NCBI GenBank assembly: GCA_964387845.1
Contig: CAYLXA010000011.1
Coordinates: 32,001-96,000, forward strand
DNA: 64,000 nucleotides
From: an uncultured bacterium
Lineage (GTDB): Bacteria > Omnitrophota > Omnitrophia > Omnitrophales > Abzuiibacteriaceae
Direction of reading: 5' to 3'
In this document: in pieces, positions 6,810 through 44,712 of the stretch
Position numbering within the stretch: the stretch's first letter is position 1
Layout: every line of letters starts with the position of its first letter
Position numbers and translations under genes: made by a program
Notes under the pieces: generated by a model
What the model saw: only the letters and a program-made list of their open reading frames with translations
The model's database searches: none
Told to the model about the DNA's origin: nothing

Positions 6810-6851
6810 GCGCATATTCGCACCATAAACTTCTTAAAGAAAGGAACGAAA

Positions 6852-7193
6852 ATGAAAAAGATTGAAGCAATAATTCGGCCCGAAAGGCTGGAAGAAGTGG
6901 TCGAGGCGCTTGAGCGCGCAGGATATCCCGGTATCATGATTACCGAGATCGAAGGCCATGGGCTCCAGAAGGGCGTACGCCAGCAATGGCGCGGTGAAGA
7001 GTTTCAGGTTAACTTTCTGCCGAAAGTGAAGGTCGAGATCGTCGCCAATGAAAAAGAAGTGGATAGTATTGTTGACGCGATCATTCGGTCGGCCTCTACA
7101 GGCGGAGTCGGTGATGGGAAGATATTTGTTTCCAACGTTGATGAAGCGATCCGGATCCGCACGAAAGAACGCGGCGTCAAGGCGCTCAGTTAA
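6852..7193 (+). CDS. glnK: Nitrogen regulatory protein P-II
   Basis: 113 aa, MKKIEAIIRPE…T-loop…RIRTGE-like C-terminus. Linked to amtB, the classic amtB-glnK pair. Confidence 0.9.
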   Translation: MKKIEAIIRPERLEEVVEALERAGYPGIMITEIEGHGLQKGVRQQWRGEEFQVNFLPKVKVEIVANEKEVDSIVDAIIRSASTGGVGDGKIFVSNVDEAIRIRTKERGVKALS

Positions 7194-7219
7194 TTCGGTT
7201 AACTGAAGTTACAAAATTT

Positions 7220-7254
7220 AGGGGCAGTCCTTCGGGGCTGCCCCTATTTTTTTC
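7220..7254. terminator. Bidirectional Rho-independent terminator between convergent glnK and lpxB
   Basis: GC-rich hairpin AGGGGCAGtCC-TTCG-GGgCTGCCCCT followed by a T8 run. An A-run sits on the other side for the minus strand. Confidence 0.6.
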
Positions 7255-7255
7255 T

Positions 7256-8398
7256 TTAGAGGTTGTTGAGGATGGCTAGGGCCGCTCGCTCGGCAGCGCC
7301 TGAAGGCCCGATGTTGTTTCGGATTTCTTCCAAGTCGCGGATTATGCGGCTTCTTGATTCTGGATTCTGGATTAAATCCAAAATTGCTTTTGAGATTGCC
7401 GCAGGTTTTGCGTCATGCTGGATGAATTCCTGGATAATTTTCCGGCCCGCTGCGACATTGGCGAGGCCGATGTAGGGGATTTGAATCAGCATTCGCCCCA
7501 ATAGGTAAGTCGTCCAATGCGTCTTATAAAGAATCACAAAAGGCGTGAGTGTCAGTGCCGTTTCAAGTGTAGCAGTTCCGGATGTGACAATTGCGGCATC
7601 GGAGGCGTGCAGCATGGGTTCTACCGCCTTGCCGCGTATCCGCTTAATCGATAGCATAGGCTCGTAATTTTTGAGAATTGAATCGTAGATTTCGAGGCCT
7701 ACATTTTCACTTTCAGGAAGTAGAAACGAAACCGATTTGGTTTCTTGTGAAATAAGCCGGGCAGATTCCAGAATGACGGGCAAAATCCTTTCGATTTCTG
7801 TTTTGCGTGAGCCGGGCAGAAGTGCAATCACTTTTTCGGCGTTTTCCACGCCGAATTCTTTCTTTAACGCCTCTTTTGATTTTGTAACCGGCGCGCGCTC
7901 TGCGAGCGGATGGCCCACCCAAGTGACGGGAACGCCGGCTTCCTGATACATTTTCTCTTCGAAATGAAATAAAACAAGCATCCGGTCGACCGTTTCCTTG
8001 ATGAGATGAATCCGGTGCTTGGCCCAAGCCCAAAGCTGCGGTGAGACATAATAAAAAGTTTTGATCCGCCGGTTGATTTGTTTTGCAAAGCGCAGATTGA
8101 AGCCGGGGTAATCAATCAGGATGAGGCAGTCGGGCTTTAACTTCAAAACATGCTGCAGTGTGGCATAGAAAATTTTCCGGATTTTGAAATATTTAGCCAG
8201 CACGTCGCCAAATCCGATGGCAGCCAGCGCGCAAAGGTCATCAAAGAGCTTGACGCCCTCGGCTTCCATTAATTTTCCGCCGAGGCCTTCAAATTTTAAA
8301 CCGGGATTTTGCTTTTTAAGCGCACGGACAAGCTCGGCACCGCGTTGGTCGCCTGAAGGTTCCCCCGCGATGAGAAAAATGGTCTTAGATTCAGGCAT
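7256..8398 (-). CDS. lpxB: Lipid-A-disaccharide synthase
   Basis: IFLIAGEPSGD N-terminal motif, about 380 aa. The start is taken at MPESKTIF (8398), overlapping the upstream gene by 8 nt. The longer ORF running to 8518 is probably an artefact. Confidence 0.85.
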   Translation of the reverse strand: MPESKTIFLIAGEPSGDQRGAELVRALKKQNPGLKFEGLGGKLMEAEGVKLFDDLCALAAIGFGDVLAKYFKIRKIFYATLQHVLKLKPDCLILIDYPGFNLRFAKQINRRIKTFYYVSPQLWAWAKHRIHLIKETVDRMLVLFHFEEKMYQEAGVPVTWVGHPLAERAPVTKSKEALKKEFGVENAEKVIALLPGSRKTEIERILPVILESARLISQETKSVSFLLPESENVGLEIYDSILKNYEPMLSIKRIRGKAVEPMLHASDAAIVTSGTATLETALTLTPFVILYKTHWTTYLLGRMLIQIPYIGLANVAAGRKIIQEFIQHDAKPAAISKAILDLIQNPESRSRIIRDLEEIRNNIGPSGAAERAALAILNNL

Positions 8399-13329: not shown

Positions 13330-14049
13330 ATGAAAAGTAAAAGAGCCGCGTTTAAGCGCGTTGTTCTGAAAATCAGCGGTGAAGCACTGCAGGGAAGCCA
13401 GCATTACGGCATTGACCACAAAGTGGTTCTCACCATCGCCAAACAAATCAAAACCGTCAACGATTCCGGCGTTGAAATCGCTTGCGTTATCGGTGCGGGC
13501 AATATTTTCCGCGGCATGCAGGCTGTTCGTCAAGGGATGGACCGCGTTAATGGTGACTACATTGGCATGCTGGCGACGATGATCAATTCGCTTTCACTGC
13601 AAGATGCGCTCGAAAAGTTGGGCGTGCATACCCGCGTGATGACGGCCATCCCGATGGAAAAGCTAGCGGAGCCTTACATTCGCCGCCGCGCACTCCGGCA
13701 CTTGGAGAAACGGCGTGTGGTTATTTTCGCCGCCGGAACCGGCAATCCTTATTTCACGACCGACACCGCCGCTGCACTGCGCGCCATTGAAATCAATGCC
13801 GATGCGGTATTAAAAGCAACGCGGGTCGACGGTGTTTATTCGGGCGATCCATTGAAGGACAAAAAGGCTAAAAGATTTGTCCGGCTTAAATATTTAGATG
13901 TTCTGAAAAAACAGCTGCAGGTCATGGATGCGACCGCAGTGTCATTGTGTATGGAAAACAAGCTTCCGATTGTCGTATTTAATTTAAATACGCCGGGCAA
14001 TATTGAAAAAGTAATGCGCGGCGATTCGATCGGAACCGTCGTTAGTTAA
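13330..14049 (+). CDS. pyrH: Uridylate (UMP) kinase
   Basis: [11 protein letters not shown]…GAGNIFRG signature motifs. 239 aa. Confidence 0.92.
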
Positions 14050-14069
14050 TTCAGCAAGCGAGGATTATT

Positions 14070-14642
14070 ATGCAAACCGCAACTTCTGCCAAATCTGTTC
14101 TCGATGAAACCCAGAACCGCATGCAAAAATCCGTTGATGCGACCCATAGCGAATTCCGCAGTATCCATACGGGCCGTGCTTCCATTGCATTGGTCGAAGC
14201 TATTCCGGTTGAGTGCTACGGATCATCCAAGCCGCTAAAAGGTATCGCGTCCATCACAACGCCGGATGCTAAGACGATCAATATTCAACCTTGGGATCCG
14301 TCGATCATTAGCGCAATCGATAAGGCCATCGTCAAAGCCGAGCTTGGCTTGGTTCCTTCAAATGACGGCCGCGTGGTTCGGATTAAAATTCCGTCACTGA
14401 CGGCAGAGCGGCGCAAAGAATTGGATAAAATTATTCGCAAAATCGCAGAAGACGGGCGCGTTTCAATCCGCAACATCCGCCACGAAGCAAATGAAGCGGT
14501 GAAGCGGCTTGAAAAAGCGAAGACGGTCAGTGAAGATGAATCGCGGGGTACTCAGAAAAAAGTTCAGGAGGCCACCGATCGCTTTACGAAAATGGTTGAT
14601 GAGCTTCTGGCGAAGAAGGAAGTTGAAATTCAGGAAGTTTAA
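14070..14642 (+). CDS. frr: Ribosome recycling factor
   Basis: 190 aa, typical RRF sequence. GAGGA RBS upstream. Confidence 0.92.
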   Translation: MQTATSAKSVLDETQNRMQKSVDATHSEFRSIHTGRASIALVEAIPVECYGSSKPLKGIASITTPDAKTINIQPWDPSIISAIDKAIVKAELGLVPSNDGRVVRIKIPSLTAERRKELDKIIRKIAEDGRVSIRNIRHEANEAVKRLEKAKTVSEDESRGTQKKVQEATDRFTKMVDELLAKKEVEIQEV

Positions 14643-14649
14643 AGACACA

Positions 14650-14679
14650 GTATCTAGTATCTCGTATCTAGTATCTAGT
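14650..14679. repeat. Tandem heptamer array (GTATCTN) x4, left arm of a long inverted structure
   Basis: GTATCTA GTATCTC GTATCTA GTATCTA GT was read directly from the sequence, immediately after the frr stop. Confidence 0.7.
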
Positions 14680-14743
14680 TGAACTTATTATTATATGAAT
14701 AGATATTGTTTCTTTCACGTTTTCCTTCCGTTCAATTCTTTAC

Positions 14744-14778
14744 TAGATACTAGATACCAGATACAAGATACGAGATAC
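14744..14778. repeat. Tandem heptamer array (NAGATAC) x5, the reverse complement of the left arm and so its right arm
   Basis: TAGATAC TAGATAC CAGATAC AAGATAC GAGATAC was read directly from the sequence. It ends 9 nt before tRNA-Lys. Confidence 0.7.
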
Positions 14779-14787
14779 GGAAATAAC

Positions 14788-14861: not shown

Positions 14862-14961
14862 ATTTGATTTCGGATTGTGGAGTGCAGATTGAGAGAATAG
14901 ATTGATGATTGTTGATTCCGAAATCCGAAATTAACAATCCGAAATTGTATAATTTGTTAAT

Positions 14962-20680: not shown

Positions 20681-20797
20681 CTGATTTTCATTAAAAATTA
20701 AATAACACTATTTGGGAATCAGCGCTGCCCCTGAATCTCGATAAAACACGTTTTTTCGTTTCTTGATATTCAGGGGCGGCACTGACTTTCATTAAAG
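20676..20797. repeat. 20-nt direct repeats CGGCACTGAYTTTCATTAAA (20676-20695, overlapping the tRNA-Leu 3' end, and 20778-20797) flanking an 82-nt palindromic insert
   Basis: Repeats with 1 mismatch. The insert carries a 10-bp inverted repeat GCCCCTGAAT/ATTCAGGGGC. Confidence 0.55.
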
Positions 20798-20872
20798 TGT
20801 TCCATTCGATTATTAATCAAAGTCAGCGCCTGCACTTGAGTGGCAAAACTCAAGTGCGGCACGTGTAAAGTT

Positions 20873-23329
20873 ATGACCGACAAACACAAACCCTATCCAT
20901 TCGACCAAATTGAACCCAAATGGCAAAAGCATTGGGTTCAAAATAAAACTTTTAAGACGCCGGATCCGGGAGAGCCGGGAAGCGAAAAGCCGAAATTTTA
21001 CATTCTCGACATGTTTCCGTATCCTTCGGGTGCGGGGCTTCATGTCGGCCACCCGGAAGGCTACACTGCCACCGACATTCTCGCACGCTATAAACGTATG
21101 CGTGACTTCAATGTCCTGCATCCGATGGGCTGGGATGCGTTTGGACTTCCGGCCGAGCAGCACGCACTTGAAACCGGCACGCACCCCAAAGCCACCACCG
21201 AGAAAAACATTGGTGTTTTCCGCAGGCAAATCCAATCGATCGGTTTCAGCTACGACTGGGACCGCGAAGTCGATACAACCGATCCCGATTATTTCAAATG
21301 GACACAATGGATTTTTCTCCAACTGTACAAAAAAGGGCTCGCTTACGAAGCGGAAGTTCCGGTGAATTGGTGCGAAGCGCTTGGGACTGTGCTCGCCAAC
21401 GAAGAAGTGATTGACGGCAAATCGGAGCGCGGCGGCCATCCGGTTGTGAGAAAGCCGATGCGGCAGTGGATTTTAAAAATCACGGAATATGCGGACCGGC
21501 TGCTGGAAGATTTGGAAGAACTGGATTGGTCGCCTGCTATTAAAGAAATGCAGCGCAACTGGATCGGAAAGTCCGTCGGTGCTGAAGTGGATTTTCAAGT
21601 AGCGGGTTCGAATGAGAAAATCCGCGTATTTACAACTCGTCCCGATACTTTATTTGGCGCGACTTACATGGTTTTAGCGCCTGAGCATCCGCTTGTCAAA
21701 AAAATGGCAACCGCTGATCAGAAAAAATTTGTTGAAGCTTACATTGATCAGACCGCGCGTAAAACTGACTTGCAGCGCACAGACCTAGCCAAAGAAAAAA
21801 CGGGTGTCTTTACCGGCGCTTACGCCATCAATCCCGTCAATCAAAAACAAATTCCGATTTGGATTGCGGATTACGTTTTGATCAGTTACGGCACAGGAGC
21901 CATCATGGCAGTTCCTGCGCACGATGAGCGCGACTTTGAATTTGCGACAAAATTCAAACTCCCGATTGTCGAAGTGATTTCAGGCGGCAATATTTCGAAC
22001 GAAGCTTTCACCGGTATCGGAAAATGCATCAACTCAACCACGCCGGATAAATCATTTTCTATCGACGGACTTCCGAGTGACGCTGCAAAGGAAAAAATCA
22101 CAAAATGGCTCGAAGATAAAAAAATCGGCGAGAAATCAATTCAGTACAAGCTGCGCGACTGGCTTTTCTCGCGCCAGCGGTATTGGGGCGAGCCGATTCC
22201 GGTGATTCATGTCGACGGCAAACCAAAACCGCTTTCTGAGAAAGATTTGCCCATCATGCTTCCAGAAACTAAATCTTACAAACCAACCGGAACCGGCGAA
22301 AGTCCGCTCGCCGGGATTCCGGATTGGGTCAACACCAAAGATCCTGAAACAGGGAAGCCGGCGAAACGCGAAACCAATACGATGCCGCAATGGGCCGGTT
22401 CCTGCTGGTATTATTTGCGCTACCTGGATCCGAAAAATGGCAAACAACTCGTTGATCCCAAAAAAGAAAAATATTGGATGCCGGTCGACCTTTATGTCGG
22501 CGGTGCCGAGCACGCGGTGCTTCATTTATTGTACGCACGCTTTTGGCATAAAGTGCTTTACGATGCCGGCGTGGTTTCAACAAAGGAACCTTTTCAAAAA
22601 CTTGTTAATCAAGGAATGATTTTGGGCGAGGACAATCAGAAAATGTCCAAATCGCGCGGCAATGTGATCAATCCCGATGACGTGATCCGCGAATATGGCG
22701 CAGACAGTCTGCGGCTTTATGAAATGTTCATGGGCCCGCTTGAAATGGTGAAGCCGTGGTCCATGCGCGGGGTGGAAGGTGTTTCACGGTTTTTGGCGCG
22801 TGTTTGGCGCCTTTTTGTTGATCGTGACGACAAGCTTCAAAAAACGATTGAAAACCGGCAGCCGACGAATGATGAATTACGCGTTCTGCATCAAGCGATT
22901 CAAAAGGTGACGGACGATCTGGACAACATGCGTTTCAACACAGCGATTTCAGCGCTGATGGTGTTTGTGAACGAAATGACAAAAGCTGCAACGCAGCCAA
23001 AATCAATGCTCGAAACCTTTCTGCTGCTTTTGGCGCCGTTTGCGCCGCACATTGCCGAAGAACTTTGGAGCCGGCTGGGGCATTCGCAAACACTGGCTTA
23101 TGAAAAGTGGCCTTCTTACGATAAGAAGTACTTAGTTCAGGACGAGGCCGAAATTGCCGTTCAAGTATTGGGTAAAATCAAGGCACGCATCGTCGTTTCG
23201 CGCAATATATCGGAAGATGAATTAAAGGCAAAAGTACTCGAACTTCCTGATATTAAACCCCTTATCGACGGCAAAAAGATAAATAAAATCTTTATAGTCC
23301 CCGGGAGATTGGTTAATATCTTAGTCTAA
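20873..23329 (+). CDS. leuS: Leucine--tRNA ligase
   Basis: HVGHPEGY (HIGH-type) motif, KMSKS as QKMSKSRGN, and a large CP1 editing insertion. 818 aa from the ATG at 20873. Confidence 0.92.
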
Positions 23330-23337
23330 CAGCGATG

Positions 23338-23414
23338 CTTCAAGCTACAAGACTCAAGCTTCAGGCTTCAAGATAGTGCGTTTCTGCTTGTAGCTTGTAG
23401 CCTGTAGCTTGCAG
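23338..23414. repeat. Inverted arrays of tandem heptamers, (CTTCAAG-like) x5 (23338-23372) and (CTTGTAG) x4 (23387-23414), around a 14-nt loop
   Basis: Left arm CTTCAAG CTACAAG ACTCAAG CTTCAGG CTTCAAG. Right arm CTTGTAG CTTGTAG CCTGTAG CTTGCAG (rc = CTACAAG). Read directly from the sequence, between the leuS stop and the GH35 start. Confidence 0.7.
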
Positions 23415-23430
23415 TTTGAAATTTGAAACT

Positions 23431-25467
23431 ATGCGACACATCCAGGTTAAAGATCGTCAGCTTCAGTTCGGCAACAAAAAAATCCCCCTTATCAGCGGCG
23501 AAGTTCATTACTGGCGCCTCAATCCCAGCTACTGGAAAGCCATTCTTACCAAAGTCAAGGAAATGGGCCTTGATATTGTTTCTACCTATGTGCCGTGGGA
23601 TTATCACGAATACAAGCAAGGCAAATTCGATTTTCATGGCAAAACGGATGAAACCCGCAATCTCGTAAGCTTTCTGGAGTTAACACGCAAGATGGGTTTT
23701 TGGGTCATCATCCGGCCCGGTCCTTATATTTACAGCGAATGGCCGAATGACGGCATTCCTTCTTACGCCTATAAATATCACCGCCTTCATCCCAAGTTCC
23801 TGGGATACGCCGAAAATTATTTAAGAAAAGTCACCGCCGTCATCAAACCATATTTGGCATCGCGTTCCAAAGGCCACATTGTTCTTGTCCAAGCCGACAA
23901 CGAAATCGATCCGTGGCCGGATGCATTCGGGCATCAATACGGACTTGCCGGAAAACCCGGCATGTTCCAGGAATTTTTGAGCCGGCGTTACGGCGGCGAT
24001 ATTGATTTGCTCAACCGAAACTGGAAAACCGAATACAAAAGCTTCAACGAGGCCGGCCCGTTTATTGCTTGCATGATGAAAGATGAGCGCGGGCTTCCTT
24101 TAAAGGGTGATAAAGAACTCCGCCGAAATCTTGATTATTTTGAATTCAAATATGATTACGCACATCAGTGTGCCAAATGGAATATCGAGATATTCCGCAA
24201 GCTCGGCGTCGATGTTCCGCTCTATTTGAACCTGTATCCGTTTTTTTATGCCCACGATTGGGCGCGCATGCAGTCTGAAAGCGATATGGTCGGAGTCGAT
24301 CTTTATCCTTCCAATGAATTAATGGAAGATGAGCATGAACACCGCAAGATGGTTGACAAGATCCGATATTTAAAGAGCATTTCGAAAGTTTCTTATATTG
24401 CCGAATTTGCCGCAGGTGTCTGGCATGCGCGGCATTATGAATCCGGTGTCCTGATGCCGAATCACTACCGCCTGATCACACTTTCCGCTTTGCAGGGCGG
24501 TGCGGCCGGATGGAATTGGTATATGCTCGTCAATCGCGACAATTGGTACATGTCGCCCATTAACGAATGGGGAAGGCCGCGCGCCGAGCTTTATCACGTT
24601 TTCAAAGACTTGGTTCATCTTTATCGCGAACTTGATCCGCCGTCATTGGAAAAATTAACGAACATCGCTGTGACGTTCAATCCCATTCAATATGCGGCGC
24701 GCACGATGCCGGTCGAAAGCCAGATTTTGACGGCGCTTTATGAAGCTGACCTGGATTATGAATTTATCAACCCCGAAATTGGATTGAGCGACAAGCCGAT
24801 TCTGTTTTATTCCGGTAATCAATGGCTCGGCAGGAAAGCGCAGAATAATTTAAGAAAGTACGTGGAGAAAGGCGGTATTTTGGTGGCATTCCGCAATTTT
24901 CCGAGAAAAGATGATAATTTCGAAACCTGCGATATTTTGGGCTTTGAGGAACCCTCCCGGATTTTATTTGAATTCCGTAGGAAGTTTGTCATCAAGCTTG
25001 ATAAAAAATCCAGCGCAGAAGCGAATAGCTCGGTTTTTAGTTATGATCACTGCAGCGGCAAACCGGTCAAGGTGGATTTTGGCAATTACGGTTCCCATAT
25101 CATCGGTTATGAGAAAAAAGTAGGGAAAGGCACGATTTTCCACTTGGGCGTGGAACCGACGAAGGAAATTATTCTGGCTATCCTTAGCTATTTCGGAATT
25201 GCGATTTATACCCATACGACTACGCGCGATGTTAAAACCAGCTTATTTCGGAAAGGGAAACGTTTTTATTTGATCGCGGTCAATAACGGAAAAGAAGACA
25301 AAAGCGCCGTGGTCGAATTGGGCCTCCCCAACGGGCGGGTCAGGCGCGTCAAAGCTACCGACCTTCAAACGCACGAAGAAAAAGAATATGTTTGCCATCA
25401 AGGTGTTTCGGTAAATGTCGATATTCCTAGAAAGGACGGCAAGGTCTTAGAAATCACTATTAAATAA
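23431..25467 (+). CDS. Glycoside hydrolase family 35 beta-galactosidase-like protein, no signal peptide
   Basis: N-terminal GH35 pattern (…ISGEVHYWRL…GPYIYSEWPNDGIP…VQADNEID). About 680 aa. ATG at 23431 was chosen over the TTG at 23416. Confidence 0.75.
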   Translation: MRHIQVKDRQLQFGNKKIPLISGEVHYWRLNPSYWKAILTKVKEMGLDIVSTYVPWDYHEYKQGKFDFHGKTDETRNLVSFLELTRKMGFWVIIRPGPYIYSEWPNDGIPSYAYKYHRLHPKFLGYAENYLRKVTAVIKPYLASRSKGHIVLVQADNEIDPWPDAFGHQYGLAGKPGMFQEFLSRRYGGDIDLLNRNWKTEYKSFNEAGPFIACMMKDERGLPLKGDKELRRNLDYFEFKYDYAHQCAKWNIEIFRKLGVDVPLYLNLYPFFYAHDWARMQSESDMVGVDLYPSNELMEDEHEHRKMVDKIRYLKSISKVSYIAEFAAGVWHARHYESGVLMPNHYRLITLSALQGGAAGWNWYMLVNRDNWYMSPINEWGRPRAELYHVFKDLVHLYRELDPPSLEKLTNIAVTFNPIQYAARTMPVESQILTALYEADLDYEFINPEIGLSDKPILFYSGNQWLGRKAQNNLRKYVEKGGILVAFRNFPRKDDNFETCDILGFEEPSRILFEFRRKFVIKLDKKSSAEANSSVFSYDHCSGKPVKVDFGNYGSHIIGYEKKVGKGTIFHLGVEPTKEIILAILSYFGIAIYTHTTTRDVKTSLFRKGKRFYLIAVNNGKEDKSAVVELGLPNGRVRRVKATDLQTHEEKEYVCHQGVSVNVDIPRKDGKVLEITIK

Positions 25468-27068: not shown

Positions 27069-27263
27069 GTTTTTGATATAAACCCGAATATTCCCTCCAC
27101 GCAATTTCCTATGAAGCCATACTCTGTCTACGAAAAGATTATTTTCCTGATTTTCCTGATTTTGCTACTTGTGTGGACGGCTTGGGGGCGTTGGGATGAC
27201 CTGAAGTTTGAAAGTTTCGGCCTCATTCAGTCTTTGCGGGATTTTCTGATAAAACCCGATTGA

Positions 27264-35798: not shown

Positions 35799-36830
35799 AT
35801 GAAAAAAATTTATTACGATCAAGATGCGGATTTGAATCATTTGAAAGGCAAAAAAGTAGCCATCGTTGGTTATGGCATCCAAGGCCGCGGACAAGGTCTC
35901 AATCTGCGCGATTCCGGTGTTGACGTGATTATTTCCCAGCGTCCCGGCGGCAAAAATTACGAAATGGCGGTTGAAGACGGTTTTAAGCCCGTGAGCGCTA
36001 AAGAGGCGGCCCAGCAGGCGGATATTATCCAGATTTTAACCCAGGACCATTTACAAGCCGAGATTTATGAGAAGGATATCGCGCCGGAATTAAAACCGGG
36101 CAAGTCGCTTCTGTTCTCGCATGGCTTCAATATTCATTTCGGCTACATCAAACCGCCCAAAACGGTGGATGTGTTCATGATTGCACCGAAAGGGCCCGGC
36201 GCTTTGGTACGCTCGCAGTTTGTGGAAGGGGGCGGTGTGCCGTGTTTGGTCGCGATTCATCAGGATGTCACGAAAACGGCGTTGAAAGTGGGCCTTGCTT
36301 ACGCAAAAGCGATCGGCGGAACCCGTGCGGGCGTTATTGAAACGTCATTCCGCGAAGAAACCGAAACCGATTTGTTCGGCGAGCAGTCTGTTTTGTGCGG
36401 AGGACTTTCAGAATTAATCCGTGCCGGCTTCGAAACTTTGGTGAACGCAGGCTATGCGCCCGAAATGGCGTATTTCGAATGTTTGCATGAAGTGAAATTG
36501 ATCACTGACGCTGTTTTTGCCGGCGGAATTTCCGGCATGCACCGCCGCGTGTCGGATACGGCGGAGTATGGTGATTATACGCGCGGCAGCCGCTTGATTA
36601 CGGCCGAGACGCGCAAAGAAATGCAGAAAATTTTGAAAGAAATTCAGACCGGCTCTTTTGCGAAAGAGTGGATGGAAGAAAACAAAAAAGGCCGTCCACT
36701 TTATAACAAACTCCGGAAAGAATGTGATGAACACCCGATTGAGAAAATCGGAGCCAAGCTACGTGAAATGATGCCTTGGATTTCGGCTTCGCTAGAAAAA
36801 AAGCCAAAAGCCAAAGCCCTAGCAAAATAA
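35799..36830 (+). CDS. ilvC: Ketol-acid reductoisomerase
   Basis: [21 protein letters not shown] Rossmann N-terminus. 343 aa. Confidence 0.93.
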
Positions 36831-44675: not shown

Positions 44676-44712
44676 AAAATGCCTTCTGATTAAGGTCAGA
44701 AGGCATTTTTTG
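44676..44712 (+). terminator. Rho-independent terminator
   Basis: 13-bp stem AAATGCCTTCTGA/TCAGAAGGCATTT with the loop TTAAGG, followed by a T6 run. Confidence 0.65.

Follow-up and report, generated by a model that had tools for sequence, protein, structure and literature searches.

This locus raises the question of what an inverted array of 7-nt repeats is doing between two adjacent genes, and whether it ends the transcript of the first of them. The DNA analysed, referred to here as the window, is a 64,000-nt stretch from an uncultured member of the Omnitrophota, and the genes are leuS and a glycosidase gene directly downstream. Domain searches identify the flanking products as LeuRS, with its editing, catalytic and anticodon-binding domains, and a GH35/GH42-type glycosidase; the nearest matches of the LeuRS are from Omnitrophota MAGs (74%). 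Both genes are on the + strand, as are all features of the spacer between them. The leuS stop codon TAA is read at 23327–23329 and the GH35 start codon ATG at 23431–23433, the latter supported by the exact protein on a Logan contig and by alignment of homologous N-termini. The 101 nt that separate them (23330–23430) begin with a linker, CAGCGATG (23330–23337), which is 8 nt long rather than the nine given in a first-pass annotation. There follow a 5' arm of five heptamers, CTTCAAG, CTACAAG, ACTCAAG, CTTCAGG and CTTCAAG (23338–23372), a 14-nt spacer or loop, ATAGTGCGTTTCTG (23373–23386), a 3' arm of four heptamers, CTTGTAG, CTTGTAG, CCTGTAG and CTTGCAG (23387–23414), two copies of TTTGAAA (23415–23428) and a CT dinucleotide, such that the GH35 ATG stands 2 nt past the repeat block. 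The five and four heptamers, the 14-nt loop and the TTTGAAA pair had all been described at first pass, and both the coordinates and independent repeat detection bear them out: Tandem Repeats Finder calls each arm with a period of 7, at 5.1 and 3.7 copies, and an inverted-repeat search finds four inverted registers of 15–37 nt that are 73–93% complementary.

The block from 23338 to 23428 is exactly 13 × 7 nt in a single register. The loop is two unit lengths, so both arms share one 7-nt register, and a period scan joined positions 23386–23428 as one run. Two of the unit sequences, CTTCAAG and TTTGAAA, fit the pattern YTT-S-AAR and are perfect odd palindromes, and the central base of the units is C in the left half of the block and G in the right half; the block is thus a tandem array and an inverted repeat at once. 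Its thirteen registers comprise five C-centred YTT-S-AAR units, two degenerate units that form the loop, four G-centred units and the two copies of TTTGAAA. A 13-codon open reading frame, MLQATRLKLQASR followed by its stop (23335–23376), has its first codon 5 nt past the leuS stop, runs through the 5' arm and terminates in the loop. It has no equivalent in the comparable insert of the related contig L086 or in the frr element described below, and the most that L114 offers is a short frame starting with TTG; the presence of the ORF over the 5' arm is probably a coincidence. An assembly artefact was also considered and rejected: Logan contig L001 (SRR15237813) shows 100% identity to the window across 14,183 nt, the leuS–GH35 element included, and analogous elements are present in many independent assemblies.

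Long period-7 arrays are some 400 times commoner in the window than in shuffled sequence: the window has four runs that score at least 12, and 100 dinucleotide shuffles average 0.01. Among the other periods from 5 to 10, there are no runs of 5, 6, 8 or 10 nt and one run of 9-mers. This is a perfect 9-nt tandem repeat, ATTTTCCTG × 2.6, at 27141–27163 within the 239-nt spacer 5' of a PfkB-family gene, and it is the sole long non-heptamer array in the window. Period-7 runs at 36776–36815 and 7351–7373 were considered as further members of the class and were discarded, being coding sequence. When the leuS–GH35 element and a second heptamer element next to frr are left out, the intergenic DNA of the window shows no general 7-nt periodicity (lag-7 match of 0.254).

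The leuS–GH35 hairpin is real but mediocre. As RNA, it has a minimum free energy (MFE) of −34.9 kcal/mol (z = −2.19), 6 of 200 shuffles fold as well, and the MFE structure accounts for only 0.9% of the ensemble; the z-scores for DNA and for the antisense RNA are −2.5 and −3.05, respectively. The arms can pair in seven registers 7 nt apart, at 64–93% complementarity, and form a stem of about 30 bp that is mismatched approximately once per heptamer, with the TTTGAAA units pairing with the outermost 5' unit in the MFE structure. The imperfect stem proposed from inspection of the letters is upheld by both RNA and DNA folding, albeit as the weakest folder of its class (z of about −2.1 to −2.2). Across 15 elements of that class the folding energies are −431.8 kcal/mol for the sense and −445.7 kcal/mol for the antisense strand; this equality does not single out the coding-strand RNA as the selected form, and no strand asymmetry that would signal RNA-level selection is seen across the 15. 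Odd palindromy, although true of the leuS–GH35 element, was discarded as a rule for the class because 6 of 28 units against an expected 10% is not convincing. The element has no match in Rfam 15 at gathering score; a permissive search returned only look-alikes of microRNA precursors, at 15–20 bits where 53–90 are required, and these are spurious.

The pairing of leuS with a GH35-family gene directly 3' of it, at 20873–25467 in the window, is an odd combination of a housekeeping synthetase and a glycosidase-like protein, and it occurs in about 68 Omnitrophota contigs (including loci L082–L161). In approximately 48 of these 68 contigs, all of which were recovered through GH35, the gap between the genes is −8 to +11 nt, such that they overlap or abut, and inserts of 28–250 nt are present in only about 17. 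The closest relative, L082 (88% identity in GH35 and about 80% in DNA), has a junction that reads TAA/ATG, and a blastn alignment to it breaks exactly at window positions 23329 and 23431; the full 101 nt is therefore a clean lineage-specific gain. No target-site duplication is seen at this junction, since the flanks CAGCGATG and CT/ATG share nothing and the empty site in L082 is simply TAA/ATG. Because leuS and GH35 overlap or abut in the relatives, they look like a single transcription and translation unit that was recently interrupted in this lineage, and because the closest relative lacks the insert it is dispensable. Usage of Shine-Dalgarno sequences is low genome-wide in our survey, and the missing one at GH35 is thus uninformative about coupling.

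Inserts at this junction are scattered over a neighbour-joining tree of GH35, each next to insert-free sisters. L086 has the inverted-heptamer architecture with other units, namely GGCCAGT, GGCCAGT, TACCAGA and AACCAGA, a 16-nt spacer, and then CTGGTTA, CCGGTAA, CTGGTAT and CTGGTTT (z = −6.9); L114 has units of the AACCAGT type (z = −5.5), and L099 has a partial version. These three contigs with CCAG-core hairpins represent non-sister lineages. The generalization that every insert at this junction is a hairpin was rejected, as only 6 of 15 inserts are significantly structured.

The first-pass annotation took the hairpin for the intrinsic terminator of leuS or for an insulator between two operons, and we consider this quite improbable. 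A long stem-loop does lie straight after the stop codon, as in Rho-independent terminators, three U residues stand 3' of the stem as it was originally drawn, and hairpins without a U-tract can pause or terminate transcription in some bacteria. However, there is no U-tract after the stem, where the sequence is TTTGAAATTTGAAACT, and promoter and terminator scans report nothing on the sense strand at either of the two heptamer elements. The stem is long, mismatched and not GC-rich and the loop is 14 nt, unlike the short GC-rich stem with a loop of 3–8 nt that defines a canonical terminator; the GH35 start codon follows 2 nt after the repeats, leaving no room for a promoter, and the two genes overlap or abut in most relatives. 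The ordinary terminators of the window are also quite different, having a GC-rich stem of 10–12 bp, a 4-nt loop and a run of T residues. The leuS–GH35 element is thus not a canonical terminator, and such elements should not be labelled as terminators by default in annotation. We note that one of the ordinary terminators, at 7219–7246, is composed of TAGGGGCAGTCC-TTCG-GGGCTGCCCCTA followed by TTTTTTT (to 7252) and is bidirectional, lying between convergent genes, and that a second is at about 44690–44711.

The window contains a sister element, as the first-pass annotation had recognized from the shared architecture. It lies on the + strand at 14649–14779, between the frr stop (14642) and the tRNA-Lys gene (14788), with AGTATCT-like units × 4.4, a loop of 61 nt and TACTAGA-like units × 5.4. 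It folds much more strongly as RNA (z = −5.6), and it is orthologous in L082 at about 80% DNA identity, with AGTATCT replaced by CGTATCT or CGTGAAG. The heptamers of the two window elements had been called unrelated. This holds only approximately, as CTTGTAG and CTNGTAT (the frr unit in phase) agree at 5 of 7 positions, an agreement that loses its significance when every rotation and either strand may be used. A search for a CTNGTAN heptamer family across Omnitrophota found only this window and one chance match, and neither the window nor 2.7 Mb of related DNA contains a second copy of the 101-nt insert. No single heptamer common to many sites was found, units differing between the two elements of the 64-kb window and among the sites in related contigs. 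The earlier view that this is a recurring structural class and not one mobile family agrees with the many different units seen in Omnitrophota and Nitrospira and with the lack of a second copy in the 2.7 Mb.

Among 1.17 Mb of Omnitrophota contigs we found 27 period-7 arrays, as compared to two, five and one of periods 5, 6 and 9, and none of periods 8, 10, 11 or 12. Fifteen of the 27 have an inverted partner, for which we required a complementary dimer no more than 250 nt away with 2 mismatches or fewer out of 14; by our own estimate, chance would give about 0.01 per array. Partnered arrays lie outside genes in 15 of 17 cases by crude ORF calls. The elements begin 3–9 nt past stop codons or flank tRNA genes, and their arms usually have four or five units. 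These are site-specific (AGACTTA, TGGTACA, TTAAAAC, AAAGTGA, CGTATCT and others), and many consist of a constant 4-nt core and three variable nt; the variable positions are often non-complementary between the arms, which gives periodic 1 × 1 mismatches. A scan of viral contigs for a 14-mer returned at least 120 single, scattered matches, as we would expect by chance given the size of the collection, and is uninformative. Contig L083 has two heptamer hairpins about 300 nt apart (14037–14192 and 14478–14583), both with CGTATCT and CGTGAAG, the units that are also found in the L082 frr element, so that some units may be reused, both inside a genome and from one genome to another.

Counterparts are present in Nitrospira, whose loci were taken in solely for carrying leuS. 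The gene 3' of leuS there encodes a lipoprotein and is probably lptE. A 5' arm with units of GAGTGCT or AAAGTTT (7 nt) or GCGAGAnnn (9 nt), according to lineage, begins 0–4 nt past the leuS stop (L037 12430–12560, L081 8471–8610, L052 10543–10690 and others), and the complementary arm lies 50–65 nt downstream within the signal-peptide codons of the next gene, so that the pair encloses the start of that gene. The arms differ between lineages with complementarity kept, and other Nitrospira lineages have no insert, stop and start nearly overlapping. Within the GAGTGCT lineage the arms are conserved with one compensatory pair only, and a covariation test is therefore uninformative. A further arrangement is seen in L052 (7062–7239), L032, L036, L077 and L051, where inverted heptamer arrays surround a conserved core of about 125 nt that is promoter-like, with TATACT-like boxes at its end, and precedes the next gene. 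The flanking heptamer varies by species (AGGGGTA × 4 with ACCCCTT × 4, GGTGAGG with CCCCTCA, and CTGAGGG) and the core is conserved.

Both the excess of heptamers in prokaryotes, including cyanobacteria, and the existence of inverted heptamer pairs, in Xanthomonas, were known beforehand. Heptamers termed STRR have reportedly been described in cyanobacteria. More generally, heptanucleotides are the over-represented class among the long simple-sequence repeats of prokaryotes, and their proposed cause is polymerase slippage (Mrazek 2007, as cited in PMC4679880). The first pass called heptad periodicity undescribed for standard terminators; as a general claim this is wrong in view of that study, as far as PMC4679880 relays it, and of work on Xanthomonas (PMC4692102). 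The repeats of Mrazek 2007, in the same secondary account, and STRR resemble the present ones in that a 7-nt unit is the favoured period of long repeats, the location is intergenic and slippage is proposed, but they are direct arrays, whereas the leuS–GH35 element is an inverted pair held tightly between a stop and a start. The GGGAATC arrays of Xanthomonas consist of about four units each, lie mainly in the intergenic DNA between co-directional genes, and form 70–75 convergent pairs per genome that are capable of forming stem-loops and are mostly transcribed; their length and sequence vary among close species (Rehm et al. 2015, PMC4692102). Common to these pairs and the present elements are tandem 7-nt units, taken as at least 2–4 per array, a complementary array nearby, which at leuS–GH35 is 14 nt away, and an intergenic position. 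They differ in that Xanthomonas uses one G-rich, quadruplex-prone heptamer genome-wide, whereas here each site has a heptamer of its own, not G-rich, with one copy of each seen, and the phyla (Omnitrophota and Nitrospirota) are others. In Beggiatoaceae, TAACTGA occurs as direct heptamer repeats a few nt 5' of start codons, with a proposed post-transcriptional role and one inverted case only (MacGregor 2015, PMC4679880). The leuS–GH35 element is likewise a heptamer array a few nt from a start, but TAACTGA is one fixed heptamer in direct orientation. The class described here is related in kind to the Xanthomonas inverted pairs and the cyanobacterial heptamer repeats. Our literature search returned no paper on such repeats in Omnitrophota or Nitrospira.

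Two groups of intercistronic structures bear comparison. REP, BIME and REPIN elements of Enterobacteria and Pseudomonas are also imperfect palindromes of 30–100 nt inside operons, and they stabilise upstream mRNA. A REP element less than about 15 nt from a stop codon can reportedly depress the upstream gene, and the leuS–GH35 hairpin similarly begins 8 nt past the stop. REP elements, however, are high-copy, conserved, mobilised by RAYT transposases and without tandem heptamers, and a second copy of the leuS–GH35 insert was found neither in the window nor in the 2.7 Mb. The second group is the RNase III processing stems found between cistrons and around tRNA and rRNA genes, of which the phage T7 R sites and the stems of rRNA operons are examples. 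What they share with the present element is a stem that reaches about 22 bp or more, is interrupted by internal mismatches and lies between cistrons or beside tRNA genes, and several members of our class flank tRNAs. No conserved sequence boxes are shared with these stems, cleavage of the leuS–GH35 stem would be putative, and periodic repeat arms are, to our knowledge, not a feature of RNase III stems.

We conclude that the 101 nt are very probably a young, lineage-specific insert made of an inverted pair of heptanucleotide tandem arrays, and that they belong to a recurrent class of junction hairpins in Omnitrophota and Nitrospirota. As to origin, a 7-nt unit was likely amplified by strand slippage. 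Since the unit is an odd palindrome, even a single array is self-complementary and folds on itself; the central units of the folded array would then decay into the loop, and slippage turnover, hairpin-templated repair or selection for pairing may preserve the match between the arms. Our favoured reading, held with about even confidence, is that of a hairpin insert built by slippage whose role, should it have one, is to punctuate the RNA between the two cistrons and so to uncouple GH35 from leuS.

A more tentative part of this reading is the putative function, by which the element would set the level of GH35 against that of leuS in a putative co-transcript of the two genes, without Rho-independent termination. 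The co-transcript is predicted to fold into the periodically mismatched, multi-register stem of about 30 bp, with the base of the stem 8 nt past the leuS stop and 2–16 nt before the GH35 start. Such a stem should break an ancestral stop–start (termination–reinitiation) coupling and occlude the GH35 initiation region, and it might serve as a barrier to 3' exonucleases or as a site for double-stranded-RNA processing; by analogy with REP elements within 15 nt of a stop, leuS may itself be slightly depressed. A processing role fits with the frequent location of class members beside tRNA genes, and with a separate and highly stable stem between tRNA-Leu and leuS that has compensatory changes (see below). 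A ribosome stopping at 23327–23329 reaches only 2–3 nt into the 5' arm, and coupling based on unwinding would thus be weak. Against a selected RNA role are the weak stem, its dispensability in the sister lineage and the equal folding of sense and antisense strands.

A live rival is a neutral by-product, namely a mutational accident of slippage and palindrome growth that is tolerated since the stem-loop keeps the stop and start near each other in space. The sporadic distribution, with absence from the closest relative, the imperfect stem (z = −2.2), the lack of strand asymmetry across the class and the frequent mismatching of variable unit positions between the arms all point this way. We nonetheless think it unlikely that the element is purely neutral, because the class recurs at the same tightly packed junctions, with 15 of 17 partnered arrays outside genes by crude ORF calls, and because both the window and L082, at about 80% DNA identity, have kept the frr element. 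Moreover, the Nitrospira arms have been swapped wholesale and are still complementary, and a 30-bp stem between formerly coupled cistrons should affect expression to some extent.

The clean presence or absence of 101 nt with unchanged flanks, and the dispersal of inserts next to insert-free sisters, would also suit the other live rival, a mobile hairpin element (REP/REPIN, MITE or IS200/IS605-derived) with an insertion point exactly between stop and start. CCAG-core heptamer hairpins at one junction in the non-sister lineages L086, L114 and L099 are in keeping with such mobility, as is the occurrence of GTAG three times in the 3' arm, which recalls what we take to be the REP head. This explanation is nevertheless improbable given that target-site duplication is absent, that neither the window nor the 2.7 Mb of related DNA has another copy, and that the eight neighbouring proteins scanned have no transposase domain; heptamers differ among sites in one contig, and the CTNGTAN family test was empty beyond this window. 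An element that acts as DNA, either as a cruciform or as an array of sites for a protein reading 7-bp steps or for a Csp-like single-strand binder with one heptamer per monomer, would account for the symmetric folding of both strands and for the 4-nt core with three variable nt in many units, and CspB is described as binding in heptamer steps (as cited in PMC4679880). We give this hardly any credence: the cores differ by site, which rules out a single sequence-specific reader for all of them, a cruciform is unlikely to extrude with loops that range from 14 to more than 100 nt, and the binding protein is hypothetical, with no candidate found. A bolder extension, which we think very unlikely to be correct, is that inverted heptamer arrays are distinct, cross-phylum, self-renewing 'slip-hairpins' placed precisely at stop/start junctions or tRNA genes by a dedicated mechanism and acting as rapidly tunable valves between cistrons. 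Candidate mechanisms would be single-strand hairpin transposition or hairpin-primed templated synthesis, and the number of units would set the strength of the stem and hence the expression ratio of the neighbouring genes. If this were true, the CCAG- and CAAG-core repeats at the leuS–GH35 junction of non-sister lineages would represent targeted insertion.

The dominance of 7-nt units among the long simple repeats of prokaryotes has been a puzzle since 2007, and the paired, hairpin-forming version has been noted only in passing, in Xanthomonas. The present analysis shows this version in two phyla that are uncultivated or little studied, where the heptamer changes from site to site. The leuS–GH35 junction offers natural comparisons with and without the insert at a gene pair whose stop and start are otherwise fused phylum-wide. 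It lends itself to two questions, namely whether hairpins of this kind adjust the expression of their neighbours relative to each other, and how the arms stay complementary while the units turn over.

Several further structures accompany tRNA genes. In the window, the spacer between tRNA-Lys and tRNA-Glu (14862–14961) contains degenerate heptamers, GATTGnn about six times and then TCCGAAA twice, together with a perfect 11-nt inverted pair, ATTTCGGATTG and CAATCCGAAAT, and may belong to the class as a third element that has decayed. Contig L151 has heptamer hairpins on both sides of tRNA-Leu (6838–6918 and 7030–7115), parting it from tRNA-Ala, which together with the frr/tRNA-Lys case suggests a link with tRNA processing. 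The spacer from tRNA-Leu(CAA) to the leuS start (20682–20872) has no Rfam match and folds at −75.5 kcal/mol (z = −9.7) into a hairpin of about 145 nt and a second hairpin right before the ATG. Its core stem is kept in L082 through compensatory changes, GCCCC/GGGGC to GTCCC/GGGAC and GAATC/ATATTC to GAGTC/ATACTC, and it could be a processing stem or a regulatory leader of leuS.
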